This document shows positions 1-47,158 of a DNA stretch of 64,000 nt, piece by piece; position 1 is the stretch's first letter, and the number at the start of each line of letters is the position of its first letter. A program made the position numbers and the translations under genes. Source of the DNA: a virus (Duplodnaviria > Heunggongvirae > Uroviricota > Caudoviricetes); IMG/VR virus record IMGVR_UViG_3300001199_000002, positions 112,062-176,061 of that record; one strand, 5' to 3'. The notes beneath the pieces are model-generated. The model saw nothing but the letters and a program-made list of their open reading frames with translations. It had not been told where the DNA came from and searched no databases.

Positions 1-9
1 GTAAGGTAT

Positions 10-558
10 ATGCCATTTGGTATCCCAACTATCTGTGATCGTCTAGATGTGGATAAGAAATACGATGTCTCATTTGTTGGTCAGAAGCACGGTATTCGCG
101 GTGAAGTTGTTGACGCTTTTCTTAGGGCTGGTATTCGGGTCCATCTTTTTGGTCACTACTGGGACGGGTATCCTGACTGGCATGGTCGCCCGTCTCCTAC
201 TGAGATGGTCAGGATTTTCAACGAAACCAAAGTCAACCTCAACTTCCGATGGACCTCAAGAAATCCAGAAAGAGGACTTGTCAACGGAAGATCGTTCGAA
301 CTCATGGGATGCGGAGCCTTTATGCTTGCCACCCAACACAAAGAGTCAGACGAGTTCAGAGAACTTTACGAGAGAGATTGGGACTTCTCCGAGTGCCACT
401 TCGTAAATGAGATGATTCAAAATACTATGTATTACACCGATCCTGACCATGATCATCTAAGGTATGGAATGGCGAATCGCGCATACCTCAAACGTGATCA
501 ACATCTTTGGACAGTGCGACTTAAGCGATTCTTGGAGAATGAACTGTGGAAGAAATAA
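10..558 (+). CDS. Glycosyltransferase, C-terminal domain of a GT1/CgeB-like protein; 5' end lies outside the window
   Basis: ORF runs to the window edge; ELMGCGAFMLA motif resembles the CgeB/GT1 C-terminal region; sits in the sugar cluster. Confidence 0.45.
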   Translation: MPFGIPTICDRLDVDKKYDVSFVGQKHGIRGEVVDAFLRAGIRVHLFGHYWDGYPDWHGRPSPTEMVRIFNETKVNLNFRWTSRNPERGLVNGRSFELMGCGAFMLATQHKESDEFRELYERDWDFSECHFVNEMIQNTMYYTDPDHDHLRYGMANRAYLKRDQHLWTVRLKRFLENELWKK

Positions 559-1016
559 CATCCTGGGCTACGTTCAGTCCATGTAGAACACATAGATTTG
601 TGCTTGGTCGCAAATGGAGTGACAAGTCGCTTGTTATGTTTATTGGCTTGAATCCAAGTACGGCCGACGAAACTAAAAACGATCCAACGATCAGACGATG
701 TATTGGATACGCCAAAGACTGGGGATATGGCGGCTTATTGATGACAAACATCTTTGCATATCGATCTACTGATCCCAAACATCTTCTAGAATGTCAGGAT
801 CCTATTGGTTCGGGGAATGACGAGGCGTTGCTTCAATGCTATACAGAAGCTGATATGGCAATCGCCGCCTGGGGAACACACGGAACTTTGATGGATAGAC
901 ACTTGGCAGTTCGTAAGTTGCTACCCAATTTGCACTATCTAAAGCTTACTAAAGATGGACATCCTGGCCATCCATTGTATCTGCCTAAGTTATTGAGGCC
1001 AACTCTATGGCAATAG
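546..1016 (+). CDS. DUF1643-like protein
   Basis: GLNPSTAD...DPT motif pattern typical of the DUF1643 family. Confidence 0.4.
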   Translation: MEEITSWATFSPCRTHRFVLGRKWSDKSLVMFIGLNPSTADETKNDPTIRRCIGYAKDWGYGGLLMTNIFAYRSTDPKHLLECQDPIGSGNDEALLQCYTEADMAIAAWGTHGTLMDRHLAVRKLLPNLHYLKLTKDGHPGHPLYLPKLLRPTLWQ

Positions 1017-1708
1017 ACATTCATCTAGGTGATTCTATTGATGGACTAGATAAACAACACTCAGAGTCTATCGACTGTATGGTGACCAGCCCGCCGTATA
1101 AGGACTCCGATGGATATACAGAGTCTTTGATTCGTCATGTATTTGAAGCAGCCTTCTATACAATGAAGAAGAACTCATTGCTCTTTGTAAACTTTGGGCA
1201 TCTTGCAGAAGATAAGATGCGACCATTCAAGGTTGCAATGATTATTCAGGAGTGCGGCTTTACTTTACAAGAAACCTTTGTATGGATTAAGAATCACTAT
1301 CGACCCATTCAGGGTAAGCGGCGCGTCAACAATCTCACTGAGTTCATTTTCATGTTTTCAAAGGGCGACATGCCAGAGCTAGATAGACTAGCAGTAGGAA
1401 TACCATATGCGGATAAGAGCAACATCGGACGATACGCAGTATCGGATCTTAAGTGCGCAGGCAACGTTTGGAACATTGCTTACGACACTATTCAGTCGAG
1501 TGAAGACAAGCTTCACAACGATCGCTTTCCACTTGACCTACCGCTCAGGTGTCTCAAGCTTGCTGGCATCAAACCCGGACAGCTTGTATGTGATCCTTTT
1601 ACTGGGAGTGGCACTACAGCCCTTGCTTGCAAGCAACTAGGACTGAACTACGTCGGGTGGGAGATCAATCAGACGCACTATGAGACAGCGCTAAAGAGGC
1701 TTACATGA
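1007..1708 (+). CDS. DNA methyltransferase (N6-adenine/N4-cytosine class)
   Basis: TSPPY catalytic motif; C-terminal DPFTGSGTT AdoMet-binding motif. Confidence 0.75.
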   Translation: MAIDIHLGDSIDGLDKQHSESIDCMVTSPPYKDSDGYTESLIRHVFEAAFYTMKKNSLLFVNFGHLAEDKMRPFKVAMIIQECGFTLQETFVWIKNHYRPIQGKRRVNNLTEFIFMFSKGDMPELDRLAVGIPYADKSNIGRYAVSDLKCAGNVWNIAYDTIQSSEDKLHNDRFPLDLPLRCLKLAGIKPGQLVCDPFTGSGTTALACKQLGLNYVGWEINQTHYETALKRLT

Positions 1709-2124
1709 AGATCATCGTAGCTAGTGGATACTTCAACCCTCTACACAAAGGGCACGTCGAGTATCTTGAGCGTGCTCGAACGTTGGGTGATATGTTGATT
1801 GTAATTGTCAACACAGATTTGCAACGAGCTATCAAGGGATCAAAAGAGTTTATGGATCAATATGAACGTATCATGATCGTGAACGCCCTGCGATGCGTAG
1901 ACCAGTCAGTCCTCGCTATTGATATAGACGGCACAGTATGCAAAACACTAGAGATGCTAAGATCGAATATGCTTAGTACAGATCATCTTACCTTTGCTAA
2001 GGGTGGAGATCGGTTTGCCTCTGAAATTCCAGAGGCTGAAGTTTGCCATAGACTAGGAATCGATATGGTAGATGGATTGGGAAACAAGATTCAGAGTTCA
2101 TCATGGCTCCTAAGATCACAGTAG
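1705..2124 (+). CDS. Cytidylyltransferase-like nucleotidyltransferase (RfaE domain II / TagD-like)
   Basis: GYFNPLHKGH HxGH nucleotidyltransferase motif; start overlaps upstream stop (ATGA). Confidence 0.65.
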   Translation: MKIIVASGYFNPLHKGHVEYLERARTLGDMLIVIVNTDLQRAIKGSKEFMDQYERIMIVNALRCVDQSVLAIDIDGTVCKTLEMLRSNMLSTDHLTFAKGGDRFASEIPEAEVCHRLGIDMVDGLGNKIQSSSWLLRSQ

Positions 2125-2855
2125 TTACATACTGCCACGAGAAGCACAAGAAGTGGATCCCATTCTGGATCTCACAACTAGAGAAGCAGACATTTCGTGA
2201 CTTCAATATTCTCTTCATTGCGCATAACTGGAAGTTTGATTTCACAGAATACCAATGCTGGCTAGATGGCCATACCAAGAACGAAGACGGAACGCTAACG
2301 CTGCATACTGGTACTTATCTTGGTGAAGATTTGTGGGATAACTTCGCTAGCTTAGAGCATAGCGGACCTCCAGTTATTGGAGATGTCATCAACTTTGCCC
2401 TTAAGCATGTCGATACCGAATACTTTGCACACTGGGACGTGGATGACTGGATTCATCCAGATCGTCTCAAGTTACAGGCAGAGTATCTAGAAGCACATCC
2501 AGAAGTAGACTTCCTTGGCACGCGCATGGTTGGTTTTAGAGGAGAGCCTACTGACGAAATGATGAAGCTCGACTATTACGAGCCTAACGAACCTAACGCC
2601 AACGTAACAGAACATAAAGACATCTATCAGTGCATGTGGCACAGGGGTCAGAACTGCTTGGGCCATACGACTATGATCTATAAGGTTCAGGCAATGAAGG
2701 ATCTAGGTGGCTTCTCTATGTCAGACGTTAAGCTAGATGGTAGAAGTCCAGACTTTGAAACGTGGAAGAAGGCACTAATAGCCGGATACGAGTTTCATCG
2801 CCTTCCGCAACTATGCGCACTATGGCGACTTGATAGTAGCAGCATAAGATTGTAA
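2103..2855 (+). CDS. Glycosyltransferase family 2-like
   Basis: WDVDDW DxD-type motif; GT-A-like N-terminal region. Confidence 0.5.
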   Translation: MAPKITVVTYCHEKHKKWIPFWISQLEKQTFRDFNILFIAHNWKFDFTEYQCWLDGHTKNEDGTLTLHTGTYLGEDLWDNFASLEHSGPPVIGDVINFALKHVDTEYFAHWDVDDWIHPDRLKLQAEYLEAHPEVDFLGTRMVGFRGEPTDEMMKLDYYEPNEPNANVTEHKDIYQCMWHRGQNCLGHTTMIYKVQAMKDLGGFSMSDVKLDGRSPDFETWKKALIAGYEFHRLPQLCALWRLDSSSIRL

Positions 2856-2887
2856 ACAAAAATCATTTACAGACACATACTATTAAG

Positions 2888-3442
2888 ATGACCCATCAAT
2901 CTGGTATCTATCAAATACGTAACTTAAAGAATGGGAAGCGCTATATTGGTAGTGCTGTGACTATCAGAACTCGATGGAACGAACATCGTCATGAGTTGCG
3001 ACACCAATGCCATCATTCTCCAAAGTTGCAAAATTCTTGGAATAAGAATGGAGAAGACATTTTCGCCTTTGAGGTTCTGCTCTACTGCGATTCCGAGCAC
3101 TGCTTGATGTATGAACAGATCGCTCTCGATCATTTCAAACCAGCATATAACATTCAGCAAATAGCAAAAAGTCCTCTTGGAACAAAACGCACCCATGCTC
3201 AAAAACGTCGTATGAGCAAAGCTCATTTTGGTATAAAGCATAAAGATCAAGCTAAGAAGAAACTTATGGATCAACGTATTGGAGAACTAAATCCAAGCGC
3301 CAGGATAACAAAACAGATAGTCGTTCAAATTCGACAAATGTATAGAAATGGCATTACACAAACCGCCATAGCTCCTGTCGTTGGTTTAAGTCGTCAACAA
3401 GTTAACAGAATCTGTAATAGTAAAAGATGGAGTCATGTATGA
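2888..3442 (+). CDS. GIY-YIG homing endonuclease
   Basis: GIYQIRN...RYIGSA...RWNEH GIY-YIG core; C-terminal HTH-like tail. Confidence 0.8.
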   Translation: MTHQSGIYQIRNLKNGKRYIGSAVTIRTRWNEHRHELRHQCHHSPKLQNSWNKNGEDIFAFEVLLYCDSEHCLMYEQIALDHFKPAYNIQQIAKSPLGTKRTHAQKRRMSKAHFGIKHKDQAKKKLMDQRIGELNPSARITKQIVVQIRQMYRNGITQTAIAPVVGLSRQQVNRICNSKRWSHV

Positions 3443-4326
3443 CGCTAAAGATCGGAGTGATAGCATGGGGAGCAATGGCAGACATTCTGTATGCTACTCC
3501 TATCGTAAGATACGTGCGAAGCGAAAATCCAGACGCTGAAATCTCGTGGCTTGTGCGCGACAAGTTCGCAGAAGTCATTGAGACCAATCCAGATATCGAT
3601 CACGTAGTTAACTTCGTCCTACCAGATGGTCACAATAGTAGGCAAGAAGCTGAGTATGTAATGGATCGAGAAATTCTTACTTACGCAAAGACGAATTTCG
3701 ACAAGGTGATTGACCTACAGTATTGGCCACGCTACGCTAACTTTTATGAGCGTCCAAACGAGGACTTTATTTCTCTCAGAGCGCGTAACGCTGGGCTAGA
3801 ACCAACCGCTATCAAAGATCGTTCGATAGTTCTTGAGCCCACCGAAGATGACATTAAGCAAGCTCGTGACTTTCTAGGTAAATATAACCTAAGAGGTAAT
3901 TGGTTCATAACCGTAAATCATATTAGTTATGCTGCTGCACCAGTTTGCAACTTTGAATACTACCAACAGCTAGTCAATATCCTTAAGGGAGATGACGTAT
4001 CGGTTGTATTCACTGGAGCAACAAACGAACCAATCCCAGAGGGTGGTATCGATGCTCGTGGCATGCCATACCGCGTATGGTACTGCCTCATATCAATGAG
4101 CGACTTCTATCTTGGATTGGATAGTGGCGCTAAAACTCTTGCCTGCGCAACGGAAGTTCCAATGGCAATTCTACACTCGCGCGATTTTCCGCTCAAGAAG
4201 ACGGGCTGCGCATCAATGGGAATCCGTAGTTCCGACATCATGGAGCTAACAACGATTCCTTCAGTAACTAGTCTAGTTGACATAATCATGTCACATATCC
4301 CACCATGGAACAAGCAGACAAACTAA
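3427..4326 (+). CDS. Glycosyltransferase family 9 (heptosyltransferase-like)
   Basis: N-terminal IGVIAWGAMADILYATP resembles the ADP-heptose:LPS heptosyltransferase fold. Confidence 0.45.
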   Translation: MESCMTLKIGVIAWGAMADILYATPIVRYVRSENPDAEISWLVRDKFAEVIETNPDIDHVVNFVLPDGHNSRQEAEYVMDREILTYAKTNFDKVIDLQYWPRYANFYERPNEDFISLRARNAGLEPTAIKDRSIVLEPTEDDIKQARDFLGKYNLRGNWFITVNHISYAAAPVCNFEYYQQLVNILKGDDVSVVFTGATNEPIPEGGIDARGMPYRVWYCLISMSDFYLGLDSGAKTLACATEVPMAILHSRDFPLKKTGCASMGIRSSDIMELTTIPSVTSLVDIIMSHIPPWNKQTN

Positions 4327-4655
4327 TTCACGACTTCCTAAGATCAGATGTATGTAAGGAAGCGCTGGCATGCGACGATTTTCATATCAACACATCGCCA
4401 ATCACACTCACCTATCTAATTGAACGGCTTGTCATCACGCACGTAAAGCTCTTCATGATGGAGGATCAGGTAAGAGATCCTAAACTAACAGATGCAGAAG
4501 TTGGAGCTATCAAGCGAAAGATTGACTATTGGAATGGAGTGCAGAGACCAAGGTTGGTTGAAGGCATCGGAGAAATTATGGCTAAGGCAGTTAAGACAGG
4601 AAATGAAGAATTGGTTAGGGAACCAAACCTGAAGGACTACAAGGCAAGAGAATGA
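4305..4655 (+). CDS. Hypothetical protein
   Basis: ORF in operon context. Confidence 0.4.
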   Translation: MEQADKLIHDFLRSDVCKEALACDDFHINTSPITLTYLIERLVITHVKLFMMEDQVRDPKLTDAEVGAIKRKIDYWNGVQRPRLVEGIGEIMAKAVKTGNEELVREPNLKDYKARE

Positions 4656-5047
4656 ACACAATTGACAAGATCAGAAGTCACGCAAAGTTTCTACAACGCT
4701 CTCCTAGCACTAACTTTATTCTAGCAACCTCTCTACTAGACCTAAGTGACAGGATGGAAGAGATTGAACAAGAGATTGCAGACAACGAGCCAGAGATAGA
4801 TACGGAAACTCTTGCGTATACCACACGACTCCGTAATGGAGTCTTCAGTCACGAGAAGGGCCAGATCACTTGGCTCAAGAAGGCACGTAGACTATTCAAG
4901 CAAGGAATGCTTGAGCTTCGCACTTCGGTTTCAAAATCCTTTATCTCAAATATGGCGGTGAGCAATATGAGAAAGGCTCTGTTAACTCTAGATGACATCG
5001 AATTCTTGACAGCACTTACATCGCCAGAATGGATCAGCAACCGATGA
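4652..5047 (+). CDS. Hypothetical protein
   Basis: ORF in operon context. Confidence 0.4.
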   Translation: MNTIDKIRSHAKFLQRSPSTNFILATSLLDLSDRMEEIEQEIADNEPEIDTETLAYTTRLRNGVFSHEKGQITWLKKARRLFKQGMLELRTSVSKSFISNMAVSNMRKALLTLDDIEFLTALTSPEWISNR

Positions 5048-6201
5048 AGAGACAAATCACACTAGGCTCTGTATCGATCACTCCAGTTGAGAGACGTTAC
5101 GTTGAGCGAGTTCTAGAAACAACTCTAGTTGGTCCATTCGAGTTTAGCAAGCAGGTTGCTGCTAGGGTGGCTGAGTTACACGGATACAAATATGGTCGTT
5201 ACCTCAATAGTGGCCAATCCGCCTTGACTATCTCGCTGCGCGCCATCATCCAGCAAAAAGGTTGGACGCATCGCCCATTAGTTGCCACACCAGCATGCAC
5301 ATACATCTCGACCCAGGGATCATGCATCTTCGCTGGCTGTGACTTTGTTCTAGTTGATGTTGGAGTTGACGACATTAACATGGATCCAAAGGCGTTGCGA
5401 GATACGCTAGAACATCAGAAGTTGATGGGTCGTCCAGTAGATATTGTAATGCCTGTCCATCTGTGTGGCAAGCCAGTCAAGCGCGAGATTAAAGATATCT
5501 GCGATCTATACAATCTACCTACGGTAGTTGATAGTTGCGAAACAATCTTTGCACCCAAAGACCTAGATTGGGGAACGATCGTATGCTTCTCTACATTCAG
5601 TAACCACACACTCGGCGCTGGCGCTGGTGGTATTACGGTAACGAATGATAAGCAACTCGACTTCTTCCTATTCCAACAGATTTCGCACGGACGTGAAAAT
5701 GAGAGTGGCGGAACCGATCCTCATACAATGGGTGAACGCTTTCGATTTAGCGAATGGGGCGAGTCACTAAAACCATCAGACCTATATGCAGCAGTGGCTC
5801 TTGGTGGTATTGAACGTAGATACGAGATCATCAATGCACAACGATTCAACGCCCTAAGGCTACGAGAACTACTGGAAGGGTTGCCACTTGGATTGCCGTC
5901 CATGGATAATCACACCTTTATGTTCTATCCAATTGTGGCAAATGAATCAGTAGACGTTACTAAACTACTAAAGCACCTACATGACAATGGTGTCTTTACA
6001 CGTAGATTGATGCCGATCACCAATCAACCAGTCGTATTGAAGTATACTGGAATGACACAAGATCAGCTTGACGCGCTATGTCCAAATGCGGCGTTTATCA
6101 ATCGCCAAGGATTCTATGTTGGCTCTCATCCAGGTTTGATGACTGACGACATCCAGTATCTTGGCAAGAAGATCCGCGAGGGAGTTGAACTAGCATCATG
6201 A
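5029..6201 (+). CDS. DegT/DnrJ/EryC1/StrS-family PLP-dependent sugar aminotransferase (perosamine-synthase-like)
   Basis: Length and conserved blocks of sugar aminotransferases; adjacent to GDP-sugar genes. Confidence 0.75.
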   Translation: MDQQPMKRQITLGSVSITPVERRYVERVLETTLVGPFEFSKQVAARVAELHGYKYGRYLNSGQSALTISLRAIIQQKGWTHRPLVATPACTYISTQGSCIFAGCDFVLVDVGVDDINMDPKALRDTLEHQKLMGRPVDIVMPVHLCGKPVKREIKDICDLYNLPTVVDSCETIFAPKDLDWGTIVCFSTFSNHTLGAGAGGITVTNDKQLDFFLFQQISHGRENESGGTDPHTMGERFRFSEWGESLKPSDLYAAVALGGIERRYEIINAQRFNALRLRELLEGLPLGLPSMDNHTFMFYPIVANESVDVTKLLKHLHDNGVFTRRLMPITNQPVVLKYTGMTQDQLDALCPNAAFINRQGFYVGSHPGLMTDDIQYLGKKIREGVELAS

Positions 6202-7124
6202 AGATACTGATCACTGGTGCTCATGGCTTTCTAGGAAAGCACGTTGTTAATCTCCTTAGTAAGAGATCAGACCTTGCGTTGCTTACGCCAACTAGAGCAG
6301 AGCTTAACTTGATGCATAGACCTAGCATCGAGGATTATCTACAAGAACACTGGCCACATGTCGTTATTCATCTAGCTGCACAATGTGGTGGTATTGGAAT
6401 CAATCGCGAAAAGCCCGGCGAGTTCCTATACAATAACATGACAATGACGACAAATCTAATTGATGAAGTTCGTCTATACAACAAACAGTGTAAGTTCGTA
6501 GGAATAGGAACAGTATGTAGCTATCCAAAGCATACACCAGTTCCATTCAGGGAAGACGATCTTTACAATGGATATCCAGAAGAGACTAATGCGCCCTATG
6601 GATTGGCTAAGCGAATGCAGCTTGAAATGCTGCGCGCTTATCGCACTCAATACGGTCTGCGTGGAATCTTCCTTATCCCAGTCAATATGATTGGCGAGCA
6701 TGACAACTTCGATGATGACAGTAGTCACGTAGTGCCAGCTATGCTAAAGAAATTCCATCGCGCAAAGCTTAATGGTGACAAAAGCGTAACCCTATGGGGC
6801 GACGGTTCTGCATCAAGAGAGTTTTTGTATGCCGGTGATTGCGCTGAGGCAATTCTGCTAGCGACGATGTTTTGCGACTCTAGCGAACCAATCAATATTG
6901 GCACAGGAAAAGAGATCACGATTCGCGCTCTCGCAGAGAAGATCAAGAGCGTTGTCGGATTCGAAGGCGAGATTGTATGGGATACGTCTAAGCCTAATGG
7001 ACAGCCGCGTCGCTGTCTAGATGTCAGCAGGGCGAAGAAAGAGTTTGGTTTTACAGCCAAGTCGGACTTTGATAAAGTCCTAAGAGATACATACGAATGG
7101 GCACAACAGAACGGAGTACTATGA
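6198..7124 (+). CDS. fcl: NAD(P)-dependent GDP-sugar epimerase/reductase (GDP-L-fucose synthase-like)
   Basis: ILITGAHGFLGKHV Rossmann motif; SDR-extended YxxxK; lies next to gmd. Confidence 0.7.
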   Translation: MKILITGAHGFLGKHVVNLLSKRSDLALLTPTRAELNLMHRPSIEDYLQEHWPHVVIHLAAQCGGIGINREKPGEFLYNNMTMTTNLIDEVRLYNKQCKFVGIGTVCSYPKHTPVPFREDDLYNGYPEETNAPYGLAKRMQLEMLRAYRTQYGLRGIFLIPVNMIGEHDNFDDDSSHVVPAMLKKFHRAKLNGDKSVTLWGDGSASREFLYAGDCAEAILLATMFCDSSEPINIGTGKEITIRALAEKIKSVVGFEGEIVWDTSKPNGQPRRCLDVSRAKKEFGFTAKSDFDKVLRDTYEWAQQNGVL

Positions 7125-8194
7125 AGACAGCAATTGTAACTGGGATCAACGGACAGGATGGCTATTACCTGACCAAGCTTCTGCTCGAAAAGGGCTATCG
7201 AGTAGTTGGCGTCCAGCGCCGCACTAGTTCATCAACATCGTGGCGTCTTATAGACCTTCCGACTTATGAAGCGGCAGTAAAAGCCAATCGCCTTATCTTT
7301 GAGGCTGGCGACATTACCGACTTCTCTTCGATCTCGCGTATCGTAATGGCATACAAACCAGATGAGTTCTATAACCTAGCGGCTCAGTCCCAGGTATGGC
7401 ACTCATTCAAGTCGCCTCTGTCTACATTAGAGATTACTGGTCTAGGTGCCGCTGTATGTCTTGAAGCTGTAAGACAATTCGCACCTACATGTAAATTCTA
7501 CCAAGCAGGCTCGTCAGAGCAATATGGAAACTCGGCGATCCTTGGAAAGTTACAGCCTAAGAAGGGCGTAATCTATGAACGTGTTCTAGATGAGTCTTCT
7601 CCAATGATCCCAAGATCACCATATGGCGTAGCCAAGCTCATGGCCCACACGTTGGTCAGAAATTACCGCGAAGCTTACGACATGTTTGCTGTTGGTGGAA
7701 TCTTGTTTAATCATGAAAGTCCATATCGCGGTGTTGAATTCGTTACGCGAAAGATTACTAAGGGCATCGCAGACATCCTAGCTGGACAAGCTAAGTCGAT
7801 CGAACTAGGTAATCTAGATTCGTGGCGCGACTGGGGTCACGCGGAAGACTACATGCACGCAGCGTGGCTAATGCTTCAACAACCGTCGCCAGTCGATTAC
7901 GTGATTGCTACCGGAGAGACACACCAGATTAGTGAATTCTTAGATGAGGCTTTTGGTGTAGTAAACATCAAGGACTGGTCTCAGTATGTAACTGTCAATC
8001 AAGAGTTTGTGAGACCGTCAGAGGTTGACGTATTGATCGGTGACGCGAGCAAGGCCAGAGAGGAGCTTGGCTGGGAACCGAAGCACTCGTTCAGAGACCT
8101 TGTATATCAAATGGTATCTGCTGATTGCCTCCGCAAGGGTGTTGCACAACATCTTAATAGTCACGTAGAATTTCTCAAGAAGGATAGACAATGA
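7097..8194 (+). CDS. gmd: GDP-mannose 4,6-dehydratase
   Basis: KTAIVTGINGQDGYYLTKLLLEKGYRV is the canonical GMD N-terminus; full length. Confidence 0.9.
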   Translation: MGTTERSTMKTAIVTGINGQDGYYLTKLLLEKGYRVVGVQRRTSSSTSWRLIDLPTYEAAVKANRLIFEAGDITDFSSISRIVMAYKPDEFYNLAAQSQVWHSFKSPLSTLEITGLGAAVCLEAVRQFAPTCKFYQAGSSEQYGNSAILGKLQPKKGVIYERVLDESSPMIPRSPYGVAKLMAHTLVRNYREAYDMFAVGGILFNHESPYRGVEFVTRKITKGIADILAGQAKSIELGNLDSWRDWGHAEDYMHAAWLMLQQPSPVDYVIATGETHQISEFLDEAFGVVNIKDWSQYVTVNQEFVRPSEVDVLIGDASKAREELGWEPKHSFRDLVYQMVSADCLRKGVAQHLNSHVEFLKKDRQ

Positions 8195-11336: not shown

Positions 11337-11799
11337 GGAAGTTATGAGTCACGATGTTAAGCTACCGAATGATGCCTTCGATGCCATGAAGGGATGCGCA
11401 TCAGAACTACCACCAAGTCAGATTCGTCCCGCTGGGATGACTCGTCAGGAGTGGCGTCGTAAGCAACGAGAGGAAGTTAGTGTTGCTCTCGCCACCGCAC
11501 CAACACGCACTGGTGTCCGTAAGGATCCAATTCCAACGATCAAATTGGTAAAGTGTCCTAACTGTCAGAAGGATCGCCTCGGTAAGTATCTAGGTGAAGA
11601 TGGCCAGCCATTCCCAGTCTCTAGCGAGAAGGTGGATGTTCGTGGTAAGGAACGCTTCCTGGATATTTGTGGAACGTGCGCAATGAGATTCCGCGAAGAG
11701 GATACACGCTTCGTAATGGCAAACCTTAAGAAGATCCAAGAAGCTATGCGCGCTCGTAAGGACGGCACTAGCAACAAGGACTTCTCAATTGATCTCTAA
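11290..11799 (+). CDS. Hypothetical zinc-finger protein
   Basis: CPNCQ...CGTC Cys pairs. Confidence 0.4.
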   Translation: MLPSVVLEDLDQQESEEVMSHDVKLPNDAFDAMKGCASELPPSQIRPAGMTRQEWRRKQREEVSVALATAPTRTGVRKDPIPTIKLVKCPNCQKDRLGKYLGEDGQPFPVSSEKVDVRGKERFLDICGTCAMRFREEDTRFVMANLKKIQEAMRARKDGTSNKDFSIDL

Positions 11800-13039
11800 A
11801 CGTCATTCGTTCTGGTGGGACCAGACGGCTCCCGACTTCTGCTATCAATCACAACTACCAGGATATGCCGATGTTGTAATCATCGGCGCTGGTATTGCTG
11901 GACTTTCGACTGCCTATTGGCTTGCTCGATCAGTTAAGAAAGCAAAGAAGACGTTCCGTGTTCTGGTTCTTGAACAGGCACCACATCCAGCCTTTAAGGC
12001 TAGTGGAAGACATGGAGGCGCTGTCTATCTTGGCAGCAACAAGTCGCCAATCACGATTGCTCAAACTATTGGTGACGATAAGGCAGCCGCGCTGTATCGC
12101 TTTAGCAAAGAGAACAATAACATGCTCTTCAATTTGCTAGGTGGTGGATTGCAGTGTGGGCTAGAGGATAACGGTGGATTGCGAATGGCAACTACCGCTA
12201 AAGAAGTTGTTGAGCTAGATGATAGCCAAGAGTTCTTACGAACTAGAGTCGGCATTACTAGCACGCGCTTTGATCAGAAACAAACACAACATCTTGTCAC
12301 AGCACCATTAGTTAATGGATCTCTATTCGTGCCTTTTGAGGGCATGATGGATCCATTTGCGTTTTGTAACAATCTATCACGACTGTTAAGAAATGCTGGT
12401 GGTGTCTCAGTTGTGTATGGTGCTTCGGTGTGTGACTCTGGATTGAATGAAGATGGAACTTACGTTAGACTAAGCAATGGTCACGTTATCCATGCCGGTG
12501 CTATTGTTCACGCAACAACAAAAACTTGTCAATGGAAAGAACTCTTCAAACACATAGTGTATAAGAGAGAACATGTTATTCGAACAACTCCATTCGGAGA
12601 AGACCTTGATGACATGGCGCTGCCACTCATGCCAATTGAAATTGGCACATCTAACGACTCAGCGAGACTTACGGGAAGATCGCTGATGATAACCGGAGGA
12701 AAATCTGGTCTAAAGAAGGATGTAGAAATGGGTGTGCTAGATGATAGCGACTACAACAAACGTATTTTCGACAACCTGAATGCGGAGATGCTATCGCAAC
12801 TTCCATTTACTAATCTTCTCGAACTTACTCACGTCTGGACTTACATCGAAACTAGTGCGAAAGACTTGCTACCAGTAATGGGACCACTCAAAGAGCTTCC
12901 CGGTCATTACCTAAACGTAGCTCATGGACGCAACAAGCTAGGCTTGGCGTTCCTCGGCGGAAAGAATATCGCAGAGTCTATCCTTGGTTCAAAAGTCAGC
13001 AACGAGGAGTTCGAAATTTTCTCACCAAATAGACTCTAA
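11789..13039 (+). CDS. FAD-dependent oxidoreductase (DAO family)
   Basis: VVIIGAGIAGLSTAYWLA dinucleotide-binding motif. Confidence 0.6.
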   Translation: MISKRHSFWWDQTAPDFCYQSQLPGYADVVIIGAGIAGLSTAYWLARSVKKAKKTFRVLVLEQAPHPAFKASGRHGGAVYLGSNKSPITIAQTIGDDKAAALYRFSKENNNMLFNLLGGGLQCGLEDNGGLRMATTAKEVVELDDSQEFLRTRVGITSTRFDQKQTQHLVTAPLVNGSLFVPFEGMMDPFAFCNNLSRLLRNAGGVSVVYGASVCDSGLNEDGTYVRLSNGHVIHAGAIVHATTKTCQWKELFKHIVYKREHVIRTTPFGEDLDDMALPLMPIEIGTSNDSARLTGRSLMITGGKSGLKKDVEMGVLDDSDYNKRIFDNLNAEMLSQLPFTNLLELTHVWTYIETSAKDLLPVMGPLKELPGHYLNVAHGRNKLGLAFLGGKNIAESILGSKVSNEEFEIFSPNRL

Positions 13040-13048: not shown

Positions 13049-15103
13049 ATGTTCCGACTGTCTGAAGGATTCCTTGCTCAGTTCAAGGGCAAACAACCAG
13101 CGTGGGGTTTTGGCGACCTAAGTTACGTTGTGTATAAGCGAAGTTACGCACGTCAGAAAGAAGACGGCAATCAAGAAGAGTTCTGGGAAACGGCTCAAAG
13201 AGTCGTAGAAGGAGTCTTCAACATTCAACTCAAGCACTGCCAACAGGTTGGCTTGCCTTGGAATGCTATGAAGGCACAGACATCTGCTCAAAAGATGTTT
13301 GCCAAGATTTGGGAGATGAAGTTCCTTCCACCTGGACGCGGATTATGGCTAATGGGCACGCCAGTCATCGAAAAGATTGGAAGTGCTGGCCTTAACAACT
13401 GTGGCTTCATCTCGACTAAAGAGATCCATAAGGATTTCTCTTATCCATTCTGCTGGTCGGCAGATATGCTTATGCTAGGTGTCGGTATTGGATTCGATAC
13501 TAAGGGTGCTGGAAAACTAACTATTCATGCACCAACCAAAGAAGAGACCACATTCGTCGTTCCCGACTCTCGCGAGGGTTGGGTTGACGCTATTCGCCAG
13601 CTATTAGAGTCGTACGCGAAGACGGGTCGGCACACCGTCCGGTTCGACTTTAGCCTAGTAAGAGGCCCTGGGCTGCCAATCAAGGGCTTCGGTGGCACGT
13701 CAAGTGGACCTGAGCCACTGCGCTCTGGCCTAGAATCGATTCGTTTACTGCTCGACGAAAACGCTGGCAAGCCGATTACGTCAGTAGTTATTACCGACAT
13801 CATGAATTTCATTGGCAAACTAGTTGTCAGTGGTAACGTTAGACGATCAGCCGAGATCGCTATTGGCGAAGTAGAAGACGTTGACTTCCTTCAAATGAAG
13901 GATTGGCGTCTGTTCCCCAATGAACTGAACGATCGGCGCTGGGCATCTAACAACTCAGTGTTTGTGAAATCCACAACGAACTTCGAAGAAGTCGTAAAGC
14001 GCACCATTGTAAATGGCGAGCCAGGATTTATCTTCCTTGAGAACGCGCGCCACTATGGCAGAGTTAAGGATGGTTGGAACGATGTCTCTAGCGACAAGTA
14101 TGATGATGTAGATGGCTTTAATCCCTGTGCGGAGCAAGGCTTGCGTCACGGTGAACTATGTTGTCTAGTTGAAACATTTCCCGCCAACCACGAAAGCGCA
14201 GAAGAATACTTGGATACACTCAAGTATGCATTTCTATACGCGAAGACTGTAACACTTGTGGCAACACATAGTCCGCTCACCAATCAGGTGATGTTGCAGA
14301 ATCGTCGTATCGGACTTAGCATGTCTGGTATTCAGCAGGCGATCAAGAAGTTTACCTTCGGCAAGTTTTTCACAGAGTTCTGTGATCAGGGTTATGAGAA
14401 GGTGCGTCACTGGGACAAAATCTATTCTAGATGGCTCGGTATCCCAACCTCTATCAAGGTTACTACTGTTAAGCCAAGCGGAAGTGTTTCGCTACTTGCT
14501 GGTGCTACGCCAGGAGTTCACTGCACACACGCACCATTCTATCTAAGAACGGTTCGTATGCCAGCGCTTGATCCTATGGTAGTCAAGCTACTGAACGCGG
14601 GATACCGCATCGAGGTAGAGTTGCGCGAAGTGGATAGACGAAAGGCAAGTGATATCGAAAATCACCTATTGCTTACGGCTGCGCTTCATGCGTCGGAAGG
14701 CTATCAGAAGTTTGGCGATCTAGGTGGTTCTGTTGTTGTCTACTTCCCAGTCAAGGAAGAGAACTTCACCAAGTCCAAGTTTGAGATTTCCCTATGGGAA
14801 CAGCTTTGCCTTGCGCGCGAACTACAAGATAAGTGGTCAGACAATTCGGTAAGTGTTACCGTAACCTTCAAGCCAGAAGAGGCTAAGGATCTGAAGAGCG
14901 CCATCGAATACATGGCACCTTACGTAAAGACACTCAGCTTCCTTCCACTAGAAGATCACAACTATGCACAGGCTCCATATCAGACGTGTTCGGAAAGTGA
15001 ACATAATGAATATGCACGTAGCTTGAAGAAGATCCGCCTTGGTTCTGTAAAGGGCAAGGAAGGTGGTAGTAAGTTCTGTACCAATGATTCGTGTGAAATA
15101 TGA
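13049..15103 (+). CDS. nrdJ: Ribonucleotide reductase, class II (monomeric, adenosylcobalamin-dependent, RTPR-like)
   Basis: NPCAEQ active-site Cys motif; LNNCGF; 684 aa; no separate small subunit seen. Confidence 0.65.
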   Translation: MFRLSEGFLAQFKGKQPAWGFGDLSYVVYKRSYARQKEDGNQEEFWETAQRVVEGVFNIQLKHCQQVGLPWNAMKAQTSAQKMFAKIWEMKFLPPGRGLWLMGTPVIEKIGSAGLNNCGFISTKEIHKDFSYPFCWSADMLMLGVGIGFDTKGAGKLTIHAPTKEETTFVVPDSREGWVDAIRQLLESYAKTGRHTVRFDFSLVRGPGLPIKGFGGTSSGPEPLRSGLESIRLLLDENAGKPITSVVITDIMNFIGKLVVSGNVRRSAEIAIGEVEDVDFLQMKDWRLFPNELNDRRWASNNSVFVKSTTNFEEVVKRTIVNGEPGFIFLENARHYGRVKDGWNDVSSDKYDDVDGFNPCAEQGLRHGELCCLVETFPANHESAEEYLDTLKYAFLYAKTVTLVATHSPLTNQVMLQNRRIGLSMSGIQQAIKKFTFGKFFTEFCDQGYEKVRHWDKIYSRWLGIPTSIKVTTVKPSGSVSLLAGATPGVHCTHAPFYLRTVRMPALDPMVVKLLNAGYRIEVELREVDRRKASDIENHLLLTAALHASEGYQKFGDLGGSVVVYFPVKEENFTKSKFEISLWEQLCLARELQDKWSDNSVSVTVTFKPEEAKDLKSAIEYMAPYVKTLSFLPLEDHNYAQAPYQTCSESEHNEYARSLKKIRLGSVKGKEGGSKFCTNDSCEI

Positions 15104-15549
15104 AACCTAATTGGGACCAGTATTTCATCTCGATCGCTAAAGTTGTATCAACTAGGTCTGAGTGTCTAAGGGCTAAGCATGGTGCCGTAATCGTAAGTGC
15201 TAGCAATAGGATACTCAGTACGGGATATAACAATCCTCCAGCAGGATTACCTGGATGTGAAGAGCTAGGTAAGTGTATAATTGTAGATAGACCTGGATAT
15301 GGTCCAAGTTGTCGCAATACAGTTCATGCCGAAATGAATGCTCTGTTTCACCTAGGTGGTAGGGCTGATGAAGCACACAAGCTGTATGTAACCGGCACTA
15401 CTTGCACAACTTGCCTAGAGCATATCTTGAAATTTGGCATTAAACACATCACCTGTGGACAACACTACAACAGCGATAAAGGGGCAGAAGAACGCGATAG
15501 TCTTCTAAAGACATTTGGCGCTACACTGACCTTCATGCAGGAGAATTGA
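15100..15549 (+). CDS. dCMP deaminase
   Basis: HAEMNAL ... CTTCLEHI zinc-binding CDA motifs. Confidence 0.8.
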   Translation: MKPNWDQYFISIAKVVSTRSECLRAKHGAVIVSASNRILSTGYNNPPAGLPGCEELGKCIIVDRPGYGPSCRNTVHAEMNALFHLGGRADEAHKLYVTGTTCTTCLEHILKFGIKHITCGQHYNSDKGAEERDSLLKTFGATLTFMQEN

Positions 15550-15550
15550 C

Positions 15551-17587
15551 ATGGTTAACGTTAACGTTCGGTTTCCCAACCTTTCACAAGCACCAAGAAC
15601 AGAGATAGCATATGCCGCTCTTCCTTTTGCACAAGGAGAGTGGAATGGTATAACTCCTCTTGTTCTAAGAGATGCGCAGGAACAGCTTGTTGATTCTCAT
15701 ATTGAACCACTTGGTGTTAGATGGCCCGATGGCTCTGTGAGATACGGAAAGCTACTAGCAAGAGTAAGTCTTGGTCCTAATGAAACCAAGCAAATGGTTG
15801 TAACTGAAGGAACGCCTCAGACTACTCCATTCATTGTACACGAAAGCCTTTTGGCTTCTGCTGGCAACATTGCAATGGCGCTACGCATTAAGGTAGATGG
15901 TCAGTGGACATCAACCAACCTTGTCAATAACCTACGTGTTCTAGAAGACAATCGTCTTCGAAAAGTAATTCGTTCGCGTGAGCGTATCGGCAACTTCGTT
16001 GTAGATGTCAAAGTATATCTGATGTCACAGCAACAACTTGTCAAGTTTGAATTGTCAGTAACTGGATCCAATCCAGCTAATACTCTCCTGATGTATCCAT
16101 TCGAGGAGATTCAACTTGTTGTAGATGGCAACTGCTATGCTAATATTAGAGGCGCGGCTCGCCGTGGTGTTACATCAATTGTGCCATACAAACAATTCAG
16201 ATTGATGGCTAACGATTATTTTGGCAATGGTCAAAAGCAGTCTTGGTATGGGGAAATTTTCCCACAACTTGATTTCAATAACATGGATCAGGTTTCAAAT
16301 GCAGTTTCTTCTGTCCAATACGTTCTTTATGGAATGTCTCCAGACTGGAAGAACAAGGATGCCTATGCTTCTCTAGGTGTAGTACAGCAACCAGATAATC
16401 CTAACGTCAATAATCATTGGACTCAACTAGTCCAAGAGTTCCATCAATACTACAACTTTGTAAACTCTCAAGGTGGACCATGGGATGATTACATGTTGGG
16501 TGTTACTGCCACTCCAGGACAAACCGGAGCCCAGGCAGACTTCGGCAATCTTGAAGCTGGTGCCGTTCTTCATATGGGCGCGGCAGAACTTCTAGATATG
16601 CTTTACTTCATGGCGACAGAAGAGACGAAGCGTCCTGGTCACTACTTTGAAGTTGATGGAAGAGAGGTAACATCAGCCGCACACCCAAACTGGGTAGCTT
16701 GGGCTGGTCAGACACACTGGCACACGGTGGTATCACCTGATCGTCTAGGAAAAACAGGACCAAACCTTGGTGGAAATCATCATGGTTGGTTTGGCAAAGA
16801 CGCAGAGCACTGGTCAAGCAACCTACTATCACTAGCATCTTTGATGACTGGTTCATATCTATTGCTAGATGAAGTAAATACAGAGATAGAACTCTATCTT
16901 GCCGAGCACACAATTCCAAGCATGAAGCCTGGATGGTCAACAAACGGTCGTGGAGCACCAAGAGCTTTTGGTAGAACTCATCATGCAATGTGTAACCACT
17001 ATCTACTTACTGGTCGTCAGGATCTAGTAACTAGAATGCTTGCTAGATTTACTGAATGTGTCCTGCCTAATTGGGATGGCGCTACACGCTCACCAGTTAG
17101 AAACTGGTCAAATCTAAGAGACGATCGTGTTCTTGGATCTACGACTGATGCGTGGGTTCCATGGAATGAATCTCTGGGATTCGTTGGTGCTGTTGCTCTA
17201 TACAACGTTACTCGAAACGTTGCAGTTAAAGAGATGCTTACAGCCTGGGGAAATACTATCCTAAACTATGGATGGCATGCTGACTTCGATGGATCTAGTA
17301 TCGTAAGTCTAAGCCATGGTGGTGGGGTTAGATGGTTTAATGATGGACATGCTCTAGTAGAGTCAGAGTATCACAATCCATCATATTATGTTCCTGCTGG
17401 TGGCGGTTTGATCCTATGGGGAGTCCAGGTGCTTGAGGTTATTAGAAACAACCCACAAGTCTTTGGAGAAGAAAACGCGAACAAAGCATCTATGTATGCA
17501 CAATACATGAGAGCACAGTATACTCCACAACCCAACGTTCCATTCTCGGAGTTCGGACAATGGCTAGCAATTAAGCTCATGCCATAA
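15551..17587 (+). CDS. Large hypothetical protein (678 aa)
   Basis: Long uninterrupted ORF; no motif I recognise. Confidence 0.5.
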   Translation: MVNVNVRFPNLSQAPRTEIAYAALPFAQGEWNGITPLVLRDAQEQLVDSHIEPLGVRWPDGSVRYGKLLARVSLGPNETKQMVVTEGTPQTTPFIVHESLLASAGNIAMALRIKVDGQWTSTNLVNNLRVLEDNRLRKVIRSRERIGNFVVDVKVYLMSQQQLVKFELSVTGSNPANTLLMYPFEEIQLVVDGNCYANIRGAARRGVTSIVPYKQFRLMANDYFGNGQKQSWYGEIFPQLDFNNMDQVSNAVSSVQYVLYGMSPDWKNKDAYASLGVVQQPDNPNVNNHWTQLVQEFHQYYNFVNSQGGPWDDYMLGVTATPGQTGAQADFGNLEAGAVLHMGAAELLDMLYFMATEETKRPGHYFEVDGREVTSAAHPNWVAWAGQTHWHTVVSPDRLGKTGPNLGGNHHGWFGKDAEHWSSNLLSLASLMTGSYLLLDEVNTEIELYLAEHTIPSMKPGWSTNGRGAPRAFGRTHHAMCNHYLLTGRQDLVTRMLARFTECVLPNWDGATRSPVRNWSNLRDDRVLGSTTDAWVPWNESLGFVGAVALYNVTRNVAVKEMLTAWGNTILNYGWHADFDGSSIVSLSHGGGVRWFNDGHALVESEYHNPSYYVPAGGGLILWGVQVLEVIRNNPQVFGEENANKASMYAQYMRAQYTPQPNVPFSEFGQWLAIKLMP

Positions 17588-17614: not shown

Positions 17615-18451
17615 ATGATCGAAGCAAAGATTATCGCTGACTCAATCAGTCAAACAAACGCACGTCTCACCACCTTTCAACTTATCTATCCGCGAATGGT
17701 CCACGCGGAATTGATGACGCACCGTGTGTTCAGCAGGAACGCATCGAGTTCGCGCGCAATTCCCGTGGCCAAGATCATTCAGCAGGTAATCGATAATCCA
17801 GCCATGCCCGTTTACTGGGGAAAAAACCAGAAGGGCATGCAGGCTAGAGAGGAACTTACAGGTGAGGCGCTAGAAAAAGCCAAGCAAATTTGGCTAGCCG
17901 CACGAGATGCGGCGGTTGTGGAGGCTCGGAAGTTGGTTGAGATTGATCTGCATAAGCAGATCGCCAATCGTATCCTAGAGCCATGGCACCATATTCACGT
18001 CGTTGTAACCGCAACAGACTTTGACAACTTCTTTGCCCTCCGTTGTCACCCGGACGCGCAACCAGAAATCAAGATTCTTGCCGAACAGATGCGTGATTTG
18101 TTCTATACTAACAAACCAAAAGTAGCAGAGATCGGAATGTGGCACCTACCATATGTAGGATATGCGCCAATTCTTGTTCCACAAAATCAGGGTGAGATTA
18201 AGGCTTCTGTTGCTAGATGTGCTCGTGTATCTTATATGACTCACGACAATCAGAATCCTACCCTTGAAAAGGACATTGAGCTACACGATCAGTTGCTAGC
18301 GTCTGTTCATATGTCGCCCTTCGAACATCCTGCGACTCCAATGGTTGATCCTAGTCAGTACAGTGGAAACTTCCGTGGCTGGATTCAGTATCGCAAAACC
18401 ATTAAGGGTGAGTGTTACACAAACTATGTTAGACCAACCCAAAAGTCATGA
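17615..18451 (+). CDS. thyX: FAD-dependent thymidylate synthase ThyX
   Basis: RHRVFSRNASSSRAIP matches the RHRxxSxxxxSxR signature. Confidence 0.9.
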   Translation: MIEAKIIADSISQTNARLTTFQLIYPRMVHAELMTHRVFSRNASSSRAIPVAKIIQQVIDNPAMPVYWGKNQKGMQAREELTGEALEKAKQIWLAARDAAVVEARKLVEIDLHKQIANRILEPWHHIHVVVTATDFDNFFALRCHPDAQPEIKILAEQMRDLFYTNKPKVAEIGMWHLPYVGYAPILVPQNQGEIKASVARCARVSYMTHDNQNPTLEKDIELHDQLLASVHMSPFEHPATPMVDPSQYSGNFRGWIQYRKTIKGECYTNYVRPTQKS

Positions 18452-29041: not shown

Positions 29042-29042
29042 A

Positions 29043-32490: not shown

Positions 32491-32700
32491 TTACGACAGA
32501 ACTCTAGCGTTGGCTCCGCTCATTGGATAGCGACACTTCTCACATGCTACGACTGTATTTGCATCAATGGTGACAGGAGGAAACTCCTCGACGATATCAC
32601 CATTCGCATTCTTAATTGGAACACCACTCACAAGATCAGACTCGTTGAGTACGTTGATTGCTCCACAGTTAGAGCACTTAATCTCGATTTTCCTGTTCAT
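32491..32700 (-). CDS. Small zinc-ribbon protein
   Basis: CSNCG...CEKC. Confidence 0.35.
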   Translation of the reverse strand: MNRKIEIKCSNCGAINVLNESDLVSGVPIKNANGDIVEEFPPVTIDANTVVACEKCRYPMSGANARVLS

Positions 32701-43700: not shown

Positions 43701-43777
43701 TGGTGACTCGGGTGGGATTCGAACCCACACTGTATGGCTTCTAAGACCATTGCCTCCTGCCGTTGGGCTACCGAGCC
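43701..43777 (-). tRNA. tRNA with anticodon UAG (Leu by anticodon) but short variable loop (type-I body)
   Basis: Acceptor GGCUCGG/CCGAGUC; anticodon arm AUGGU-CUUAGAA-GCCAU; T-arm GUGGG-UUCGAAU-CCCAC; CCA. Confidence 0.6.
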
Positions 43778-44247: not shown

Positions 44248-44252
44248 GATAT

Positions 44253-44328: not shown

Positions 44329-44338
44329 TAGTTGTAAA

Positions 44339-47154: not shown

Positions 47155-47158
47155 GATC

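Follow-up and report, generated by a model that had tools for sequence, protein, structure and literature searches.

A phage glycan-biosynthesis gene cluster encoding a predicted nucleotide-sugar 3-dehydratase of the ColD type

A 64,000-nucleotide stretch of the tailed-phage record IMGVR_UViG_3300001199_000002 (positions 112,062 to 176,061; the whole stretch is termed the window) begins with a string of genes for nucleotide-sugar enzymes and glycosyltransferases (GTs) at window positions 1-8194. Almost beyond doubt, this is a phage-borne nucleotide-sugar and GT operon. It represents virus-encoded glycan biosynthesis, which is of a known kind, here in an uncultured clade of aquatic phages and with predicted chemistry that appears to be new for viruses. 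The in-window genes probably specify a 3,6-dideoxyhexose of the colitose type, or a close relative, and not perosamine, and the protein central to this assignment is a DegT-family enzyme with His in place of the catalytic Lys (His-DegT). The proposal in the initial annotation of a nucleotide-sugar and glycan cluster in a phage, built on GDP-4-keto-6-deoxymannose, agrees with these results, the best homologs being nucleotide-sugar enzymes.

The His-type DegT protein and its predicted pathway

The PF01041 alignment spans the full length of the DegT-family protein (5044-6201), and its profile also matches DegT-family structures. The best single-sequence match in the Protein Data Bank (PDB) is ColD (2gms), a GDP-4-keto-6-deoxymannose 3-dehydratase. 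The FSTFSNH segment of the phage protein aligns to FSSFYSH of ColD, which ends in His188 (numbering checked against native Escherichia coli O55 ColD), and this His replaces the catalytic Lys. The same residue is found at the catalytic position in 38 of 38 aligned homologs and in all 88 viral and cellular loci. A Lys-to-His exchange is the key difference between the sugar 3-dehydratases E1, ColD and SpnQ and the aminotransferases, and neither wild-type ColD nor wild-type E1 showed aminotransferase activity (PMC8987622). E1 and SpnQ need a four-Cys [2Fe-2S] motif together with a reductase, whereas ColD needs neither and regenerates pyridoxamine 5'-phosphate (PMP) from glutamate (PMC8987622). The four-Cys motif is not present in the His-DegT family alignment, where a single Cys column is conserved, inside a D-x-C-E motif (DNCES in ColD). 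Moreover, neither the cluster in the window nor that of the related locus L004 contains a reductase or ferredoxin gene. Taken together, the His for Lys, the lack of Fe-S cysteines and the lack of a reductase gene predict a ColD-like mechanism, and the protein is very probably a PMP-dependent nucleotide-sugar 3-dehydratase. The earlier label ‘DegT aminotransferase’ is thus right for the family and wrong for the activity.

Genomic context supports a GDP-sugar, namely GDP-4-keto-6-deoxymannose, as the substrate of His-DegT. In the window, Gmd is encoded two genes downstream. Adequate flanks are available for 53 cellular loci; in 25 of these Gmd lies within 10 kb of His-DegT, often directly adjacent, and six carry the adjacent triad Gmd, His-DegT and Fcl-like protein. 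The Gmd of the window aligns full-length with PF16363 (368 bits; cutoff 27), and contains the SSE...YxxxK and FNHESPxRG motifs. Its identity to each of the two E. coli Gmd proteins is 42%, and to its orthologs in the clade 72-86%. The Fcl-like protein matches E. coli Fcl (1bsv) with 209 bits and keeps the equivalents of T105/C107, the Tyr-x3-Lys pair and His179. With these catalytic residues retained, it should both epimerise and reduce.

The most economical reading is a route from Gmd through a 3-dehydratase and a ColC-type enzyme to GDP-L-colitose. Gmd would convert host GDP-mannose to GDP-4-keto-6-deoxymannose, from which the His-type enzyme and PMP would strip the C3 hydroxyl in the ColD manner, without an Fe-S cluster or a partner reductase. 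The Fcl/ColC-type enzyme would then epimerise and reduce the intermediate to a GDP-3,6-dideoxyhexose, most likely GDP-L-colitose. Colitose itself is predicted as the final product with moderate confidence.

Several comparisons weigh against this route. His-DegT is 22% identical to E. coli O55 ColD, and the family profile scores Caulobacter GDP-perosamine synthase at 228 bits, E1 at 209 and ColD at 205. Gmd reaches 358 bits against the 415-bit cutoff of the NCBIfam equivalog TIGR01472, and the Fcl-like protein reaches 281 bits against the 500-bit cutoff of the NCBIfam Fcl equivalog. When the E. coli O55 colC and colD gene sequences were used for identity comparison, the Fcl-like protein showed 36% identity with E. 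coli Fcl and 34% with E. coli O55 ColC, compared with 39% between those two enzymes. Given these near-equal values the Fcl-like protein may just make GDP-fucose, and by sequence its identity as ColC or Fcl is indistinguishable. An alternative branch can be drawn, in which the Fcl-like enzyme would make GDP-fucose and the 3-deoxy intermediate would feed the aminotransferase encoded upstream in relatives.

The 22% identity to ColD and the profile scores indicate, on sequence grounds, that His-DegT is a member of a distinct, uncharacterised His-bearing clade and not a ColD ortholog. This clade lies nearer to perosamine synthase than to ColD, and so bears on the evolution of dehydratases from aminotransferases. 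A large FSTYxAH-type His-DegT clade occurs in candidate phyla radiation bacteria, Elusimicrobia, Omnitrophota, Nitrospirales, Acidobacteria, DPANN archaea and others (L010-L088), often beside Gmd. The viral homologs, where the source gives a name, are labelled transaminases or perosamine synthetase. On His-DegT proteins the labels ‘dTDP-4-amino-4,6-dideoxygalactose transaminase’ and ‘perosamine synthetase’ are probably wrong, and automatic annotation of this kind should be read with caution.

The initial annotation had drawn two branches from GDP-4-keto-6-deoxymannose, with the in-window DegT protein as a GDP-perosamine-type aminotransferase and the Fcl-like protein making GDP-L-fucose. Consistent with this chemistry, Caulobacter GDP-perosamine synthase (Per) is the top solved relative by profile and shares an Asn with the phage family (SFFGNK in Per, SFFSNH here), and the Fcl-like protein is marginally nearer to E. 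coli Fcl than to ColC. However, the Schiff-base Lys is missing from every one of the 88 family members, and the characterised proteins with the Lys-to-His exchange are 3-dehydratases (PMC8987622), so that the invariant His marks a dehydratase. In addition, a separate aminotransferase that bears the Lys is encoded elsewhere in the cluster of relatives. A perosamine assignment of the in-window genes is accordingly abandoned here as improbable. The separate protein, a second DegT homolog (DegT#2) encoded upstream, keeps the Lys (SFQSVK), resembles the 4-aminotransferases ArnB and TlmJ and is followed by a sugar N-formyltransferase homolog. The ‘perosamine-type’ idea may thus apply to cluster genes upstream of the window, where a perosamine-like branch probably exists by way of DegT#2 and the formyltransferase, as in relatives.

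The gene string, its core and its phage context

Family calls were made by Pfam, PHROG and NCBIfam profile searches, and core or accessory status by tblastn of the window proteins against related loci. Twelve genes lie on the + strand of positions 1-8194, and the list of open reading frames (ORFs) holds no sizeable competitor on the - strand.

1..558 (ORF 10-558), +: GT1_2 (CgeB-like), C-terminal ~185 aa; PF13524 1.1e-17; core
546..1016, +: DUF1643 protein; Pfam 4e-45, PHROG 3230; accessory
1007..1708, +: N6/N4 DNA methyltransferase; Pfam N6_N4_Mtase 8.6e-34, PHROG 67; accessory
1705..2124, +: 139-aa cytidylyltransferase-fold nucleotidyltransferase; Pfam CTP_transf_like 1.2e-12, HxGH motif; accessory
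2103..2855, +: GT2 (GT-A) glycosyltransferase; Pfam Glycos_transf_2 1.5e-8, DVDD motif; core
2888..3442, +: free-standing GIY-YIG homing endonuclease with C-terminal helix-turn-helix (HTH); Pfam GIY-YIG 9e-9, HTH_7; PHROG 314 2.6e-26
3427..4326 (likely start 3439), +: GT9-like GT-B glycosyltransferase; NCBIfam heptosyltransferase I 1.3e-11; core
4305..4655, +: DUF4254 small helical protein; Pfam 2.9e-8; core
4652..5047, +: 131-aa ORFan in a variable slot; no family match (Pfam, PHROG, NCBIfam)
5029..6201 (likely start 5044), +: DegT-family His-type protein, predicted ColD-like; DegT_DnrJ_EryC1 (PF01041) 2.2e-37; core
6198..7124, +: Fcl/ColC-type short-chain dehydrogenase/reductase; Pfam Epimerase 1e-54, NCBIfam Fcl 2e-83; core
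7097..8194 (likely start 7121, a 4-bp overlap with the upstream stop), +: Gmd; GDP_Man_Dehyd 6.8e-110; core

Every family named in the initial annotation (Gmd, Fcl-like, DegT, GT1, GT2, GT9-like, cytidylyltransferase, methyltransferase and GIY-YIG) was recovered at its place in this string by the profile searches. The junctions are overlaps of 4-22 bp, the sole gap being 32 bp 5' of the GIY-YIG gene, and a scan of the string for promoters and terminators gave nothing above shuffled expectation. These features fit one long transcription unit. The first GT gene (GT1_2) is cut at the window edge, with frame 1 open from base 1, which means that the cluster continues beyond the window.

The nearest relative with upstream sequence is L004, whose His-DegT is 88% identical. 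There the cluster starts with GT1_2, an 87-aa ORF, GT2, GIY-YIG, DegT#2, methyltransferase, Formyl_trans_N, DUF4326 and a 57-aa ORF, and continues with GT1_2, DUF1643, N6/N4 methyltransferase, nucleotidyltransferase, GT2, GT9-like, DUF4254, His-DegT, Fcl-like, a 104-aa ORF and Gmd. The window corresponds to an L004-type cluster from the second GT1_2 onward, and the best explanation from this comparison is that its genes make up the 3' two-thirds of an operon of ~13.5 kb for glycan biosynthesis. The cluster previously put at 8 kb is therefore a real gene string, but, judged from relatives, only the 3' ~8 kb of a longer one.

GT1_2, GT2, the GT9-like protein, DUF4254, His-DegT, the Fcl-like protein and Gmd form a core that is found, in a constant position, in each of the six clade loci. 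The GT1_2 orthologs (335-338 aa) are 50-81% identical in all six, and the GT2 orthologs 56-84% identical in all clade loci. Among relatives, DUF1643 is found in L004 only, and the methyltransferase and nucleotidyltransferase in L004 and L002 only. Upstream, relatives encode a true aminotransferase, an N-formyl- or N-acetyltransferase, a methyltransferase and two more GTs. This tailoring set varies: a formyltransferase is present in L002, L004 and L007, an acetyltransferase and a Rieske oxygenase take its place in L005, and L001 has extra methyltransferases. Retention of a core glycan module while the tailoring genes vary points to a surface-exposed product under diversifying selection.

The GIY-YIG gene has a GC content of 0.395 against ~0.45 for its neighbours and follows the only intergenic gap. 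It is absent from this slot in relatives, where ~42% identical copies stand at other positions, and GIY-YIG genes occupy differing positions in different genomes; it is a mobile gene that has inserted between those for GT2 and the GT9-like protein. The DNA methyltransferase has the SPPY ... FTGSGTT motif order and a weak CcrM-like NCBIfam match. Both genes had been described as embedded in the operon, and they do belong to the gene string, but as accessory or mobile members outside the conserved system, as shown by tblastn against relatives. The nucleotidyltransferase (1705-2124) is 99% identical to L004 7659-8075, whereas the flanking genes are 84-94% identical, which could reflect recent exchange or strong constraint. 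DUF4254 has 90 homologs, all inside the clade; its AlphaFold2 model forms a helical hairpin, for which no fold matched significantly, and a literature search on it gave nothing useful. No PDB match was found for DUF1643, which the literature mentions only with mobile elements, and the 131-aa ORFan has no tblastn match in any related locus.

The phage context extends well beyond the gene string. The window also encodes a dUTPase, a class II ribonucleotide reductase (RNR), dCMP deaminase, ThyX, clamp-loader-like ATPases, an RNA ligase, an HNH endonuclease and many ORFans, together with one protein that has short, weak matches to tail-fibre families. An identical copy of the window His-DegT is recorded for a JGI contig of 176,061 bp, and homologs were found on contigs of 167,701, 173,202, 175,159, 175,863, 182,889 and 183,465 bp. 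Six related loci from independent samples have the same core genes in the same order, with a common downstream flank of a 230-aa protein, MTES_1575-like and Whirly-like proteins, dUTPase, DAO, class II RNR and dCMP deaminase. No close relative of the cluster, or of its His-DegT, GT9-like or GT1_2 protein, was found among 50,697 phage records; megablast of the 8.2 kb against the phage records gave no match, tblastn queries with the RNR, the RNA ligase and the clamp loader matched only unrelated phages, at 27-41%, and single-protein IMG/VR scans with His-DegT and the GT9-like protein returned nothing, as did searches of metagenome and IMG/VR contigs for exact 52-mers. The shared order and phage flanks, the distance of cellular homologs (at most 39% identical, scattered over many phyla) and the lack of isolate relatives identify the cluster as an old core module, passed on vertically within an uncultured clade of tailed phages of ~167-183 kb. 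There is next to no chance that it is host DNA or a recently captured host island (a mis-assembly or strain-specific moron), for although all its enzyme families are typical of bacterial polysaccharide loci, the core order is kept with the same phage flanks (dUTPase, DAO, class II RNR, dCMP deaminase, ThyX) in at least six independent contigs clustering at 167-183 kb, GC is uniform across the whole window, the nearest cellular dehydratase homologs are as distant as just stated, and the GT9-like relatives (at least 41% identical) include members on the same ~122-183-kb contigs as the dehydratase and form 10 clusters at E<=1e-30. Host contamination, raised as a possible objection at the outset, can thus be set aside.

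Across the deepest clade split (L001 and L007 versus the window) His-DegT is 42-45% identical, Gmd 72-74%, the Fcl-like protein 66-68% and the GT9-like protein 58%. As judged from these values, His-DegT may be the fastest-evolving of these proteins or may have been replaced across the split.

Other genes of the lineage were recorded in passing. A 678-aa ORF (15551-17587, +) between dCMP deaminase (15100-15549) and ThyX has no Pfam, PHROG, NCBIfam or PDB sequence match; in L004 and L005 an ORF of equal length begins at the same spot after dCMP deaminase, though it is cut by the locus end. ThyX (17615-18451, +) is ThyX-type, with only its C-terminal two-thirds matching Thy1/thyX (74 bits; cutoff 87.9) and no PDB sequence match at 1e-5. 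The class II RNR has 684 aa in the window (13049-15103) and 1008-1037 aa, with a LAGLIDADG intein domain, in a distant subclade (L001 18640-21179; L007/L008 18523-21185). This intein, the wandering GIY-YIG genes and the HNH gene (43768-44373) point to heavy homing-endonuclease traffic in the lineage. Between dUTPase and RNR, all clade loci encode a DAO-type FAD oxidoreductase (11789-13039, +, in the window) that is weakly like the MnmC C-terminal domain, glycine oxidase and pipecolate oxidase. An NAD salvage pair (45760-48085, -) comprises NAMPT (464 aa) and an NMNAT-like cytidylyltransferase fused to Nudix (308 aa). PhoH, peptide deformylase and M24 methionine aminopeptidase are contiguous (27792-29864, -), the latter two being an N-terminal protein-processing pair, and a YhaM-like 3'-5' exoribonuclease (31259-32290) and a sigma-70-like protein (32678-33304) are also encoded.

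The contig JANQNF010000016.1 (175,863 bp; L003, which is the same as L009) was binned as ‘MAG: archaeon PL23a_bin.95’. It carries the large-phage genes for class II RNR, ThyX, dUTPase and ClpP, and has Gmd, His-DegT, an epimerase, UDP-glucose dehydrogenase and UDP-galactopyranose mutase in a differing arrangement; it may be a mis-binned virus. The ‘Moraphages’ were considered as the lineage and rejected, their genomes being 200-307 kb with no matching cluster described (PMC12619734).

The glycosyltransferases and the acceptor

The 299-aa GT9-like protein has no Pfam match, PF01075 (Glyco_transf_9) included; only some of its homologs and more distant relatives match PF01075. Its N-terminus matches the NCBIfam heptosyltransferase I model (1.3e-11) and the GT9 structure 3tov. 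An AlphaFold2 model built from 34 homologs had a mean predicted local distance difference test score (pLDDT) of 93.5, and its best Foldseek matches in the PDB were 3tov (5e-16), 1psw, 2h1h and 4rap, which are GT9 structures including WaaF, WaaC and TibC. Together, the N-terminal and model-based matches and the PF01075 matches of distant relatives place the protein in the GT9 superfamily, with a predicted GT-B fold. The description ‘GT9/heptosyltransferase-like’ in the initial annotation is borne out by the N-terminal match and the predicted structure, but not by a Glyco_transf_9 match in Pfam. The invariant D19 aligns to the GD motif of 3tov, and a G-L-D-S-G motif at 230-234 is also invariant. 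The family is narrow, with 103 homologs that are all at least 41% identical and 10 representative clusters at E<=1e-30.

Genes of the heptose pathway (GmhA, HldA, GmhB) were not seen, except for the ambiguous small nucleotidyltransferase. This protein scores 65 bits against rfaE_dom_II (cutoff 181) and 45 bits against TagD, and its best PDB matches (ECT, 3glv and TagD) are all weak. Candidate substrates are of the heptose-1-phosphate, glycerol-3-phosphate or phosphoethanolamine type, which these scores do not distinguish.

Bacterial GT2-GT9 fusion proteins share the domain order of the phage GT2 and GT9-like genes, which hints that the two phage enzymes act on the same glycan. P0334 (709 aa) and P0337 (910 aa) both fuse GT2 and GT9; in P0334 the GT2 domain is N-terminal, and P0337 has an extra GT9-like stretch near its N-terminus. 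A further protein, P0342 (1102 aa), contains GT9 with weak Kdo-transferase and thioredoxin matches.

In the mechanism proposed here, the GTs would assemble a short glycan in the cytoplasm, and its direct acceptor would be a conserved non-lipid molecule, most likely the phage's own virion proteins; in relatives, the two additional GTs and the upstream N-formyl/N-acetyl amino-sugar branch would take part. No cluster protein contains a hydrophobic 19-mer above a Kyte-Doolittle (KD) value of 1.75, and neither window 1-8194 nor any of the 13.5-kb clusters of L001, L002, L004, L005 and L007 yielded a call for Wzx, Wzy, WaaL, an ABC transporter or a phosphoglycosyl transferase. The lack of membrane segments and of export and priming machinery speaks against a lipid-linked route. 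The 58% identity of the GT9-like protein across the deepest split, in a narrow family, points to a conserved acceptor. Moreover, GT9-like folds are also present in Bodo saltans virus and PBCV-1, viruses of eukaryotes, whose hosts are without lipopolysaccharide (LPS), and the structural matches include TibC, a GT9 enzyme that glycosylates protein. This combination leans towards direct glycosylation of phage protein, and a virion protein is tentatively favoured as the acceptor. The complete chain, from phage operon through dideoxy-sugar pathway to glycosylated virion protein, is likewise offered as a tentative model.

Against a virion acceptor, the cluster is located among nucleotide-metabolism genes and not beside structural genes, and the window holds no capsid or tail-tube gene. 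To our knowledge, the characterised bacterial GT9 enzymes outside the TibC/Aah group all act on LPS core. The LPS inner core is itself a conserved acceptor, so that conservation of the GT9-like protein does not separate virion from LPS.

Remodelling of the host envelope is quite possible, if still doubtful. Phage enzymes at the cytoplasmic face of the inner membrane would act on lipid A-core or undecaprenyl pyrophosphate-linked intermediates, and host MsbA, Wzx or ligase would export the altered glycan, so that the LPS or capsule of the infected cell would change, resulting in superinfection exclusion or in progeny not re-adsorbing to debris. The conserved inner core would fit the conservation of the GT9-like protein, whose fold best matches WaaF and WaaC and whose N-terminus matches heptosyltransferase I. 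Gmd, Fcl and GT2 genes are also present in cyanomyoviruses, where they are commonly interpreted as LPS genes, and in the sublineage of the window an RfaE-domain-II-like nucleotidyltransferase belongs to the same string, though as an accessory gene whose substrate type is ambiguous. In addition, colitose, perosamine and N-formylperosamine are classic O-antigen sugars (PMC8987622; E. coli O55 cluster). On the other hand, no lipid-carrier priming enzyme, flippase, polymerase, ligase or membrane protein is encoded in the cluster here or in relatives, whereas wzx and wzy are part of the colitose cluster of E. coli O55. The conservation of three to five GTs across a deep clade is hard to square with fast-changing host O-antigens, and the window showed neither an integrase nor a lysogeny gene.

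A third acceptor, DNA, is improbable. Here the sugars would be placed onto modified bases as an anti-restriction measure, like T4 glucosyl-hydroxymethylcytosine or the arabinosyl-5-hydroxycytosine of RB69 and DLP3. The cluster is indeed set amid genes for a DNA methyltransferase, dUTPase, class II RNR, dCMP deaminase and ThyX, all its enzymes are soluble, and DNA-glycosylating phages carry their own nucleotide-sugar pathways and several GTs (PMC13326640; bioRxiv 10.1101/2023.12.21.572611). However, a scan of the cluster, its neighbours and most ORFs of at least 150 aa, which covers 64 of ~176 kb and does not prove absence genome-wide, gave no ThyA-family hydroxymethylase or 5-hydroxylase, no C5-cytosine methyltransferase and no TET/5mYOX dioxygenase. 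The thymidylate synthase is ThyX, the methyltransferase is of the accessory N6/N4 type, and no GT resembles known DNA GT families, as far as tested. A PHROG match to ‘thymidylate synthase’ was considered as a possible base hydroxymethylase and ruled out, the protein being ThyX.

Comparison with known systems

Virus-encoded sugar pathways already known are those for fucose and rhamnose in chloroviruses, viosamine and bacillosamine in mimiviruses, Gmd/Fcl products in cyanophages and UDP-arabinose in RB69. A literature search turned up no virus described as having a PMP-dependent 3-dehydratase or a route to a 3,6-dideoxyhexose. A more speculative extension, which we consider unlikely as it stands but worth stating, is that the clade makes a GDP-colitose-type sugar, joined in relatives by an N-formyl/N-acetyl amino sugar, and that its soluble enzymes, including a GT9-type enzyme redeployed from LPS to protein, build a diversifying glycan coat on the virion. 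If true, both a virus-encoded 3-deoxygenation pathway and a 3,6-dideoxyhexose on a virus particle would be firsts, and the coat would be the bacteriophage counterpart of the chlorovirus and mimivirus capsid glycans.

The closest parallel in chemistry is the bacterial colitose pathway of E. coli O55/O111, Yersinia pseudotuberculosis and Vibrio cholerae O139, in which Gmd, ColD/WbdK and ColC/WbdJ are the same three enzyme types. Shared features are the His for Lys, the D-x-C-E motif, the absence of Fe-S cysteines, the residues of the Fcl homolog and translational coupling by 4-bp overlaps. The proteins are nevertheless distant from those of E. coli O55 (ColD 22%, ColC 34% and Gmd 42% identity), the gene order differs, the carrier is a phage genome, and the manB/manC, wzx and wzy genes of the E. 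coli O55 cluster are missing from the phage cluster. GDP-perosamine synthase of Caulobacter crescentus (3bn1, 3dr4, 3dr7), the top solved relative of His-DegT, matches over the full length with 228 bits and has the same Asn before the catalytic position. It carries Lys186 there (SFFGNK), whereas the phage family always has His (SFFSNH / STFSNH), and with His in this place neither an internal aldimine nor normal transaminase turnover would be expected.

The GT9-like protein resembles the heptosyltransferases WaaC and WaaF, and the protein-type TibC/Aah enzymes, in its predicted GT-B fold, the Asp of the N-terminal G-x-x-D and the C-terminal D-S/T-G motif. It differs from them in having no PF01075 match, in being shorter (292-299 aa) and in forming a narrow, separate subfamily.

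Among viruses, the cyanomyovirus ‘LPS’ islands (S-SRM01, ACG-2014f and P-SSM2) are alike in belonging to large aquatic phages with Gmd, Fcl, DegT-like and GT2 genes. Identities are low (Gmd 45%, DegT 22%, GT2 24%), and the cluster described here, unlike these islands, is a clade-wide core module at a fixed locus. PBCV-1 and giant viruses have their own GMD/GMER and viral GTs that glycosylate the capsid. They share with the phage cluster a GDP-mannose-derived deoxy-sugar pathway, several soluble GTs, the lack of host-type export and, in PBCV-1 and Bodo saltans virus, GT9-like folds; they differ in having eukaryotic hosts and in sequence, with identities of at most 16%. We know of no 3-dehydratase or 3,6-dideoxy sugar in their glycan machineries.

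Mycobacteriophage GT genes sit by structural genes, whereas the cluster here lies by genes of nucleotide metabolism. In the account of Freeman et al. (2023), as cited in PMC12619734, soluble GTs of mycobacteriophages decorate capsid and tail-tube proteins. To the extent of that cited account, this virion O-glycosylation serves as the model for the tentatively favoured acceptor; those phages use host nucleotide sugars, whereas the phages described here appear to encode a full deoxy-sugar pathway of their own.

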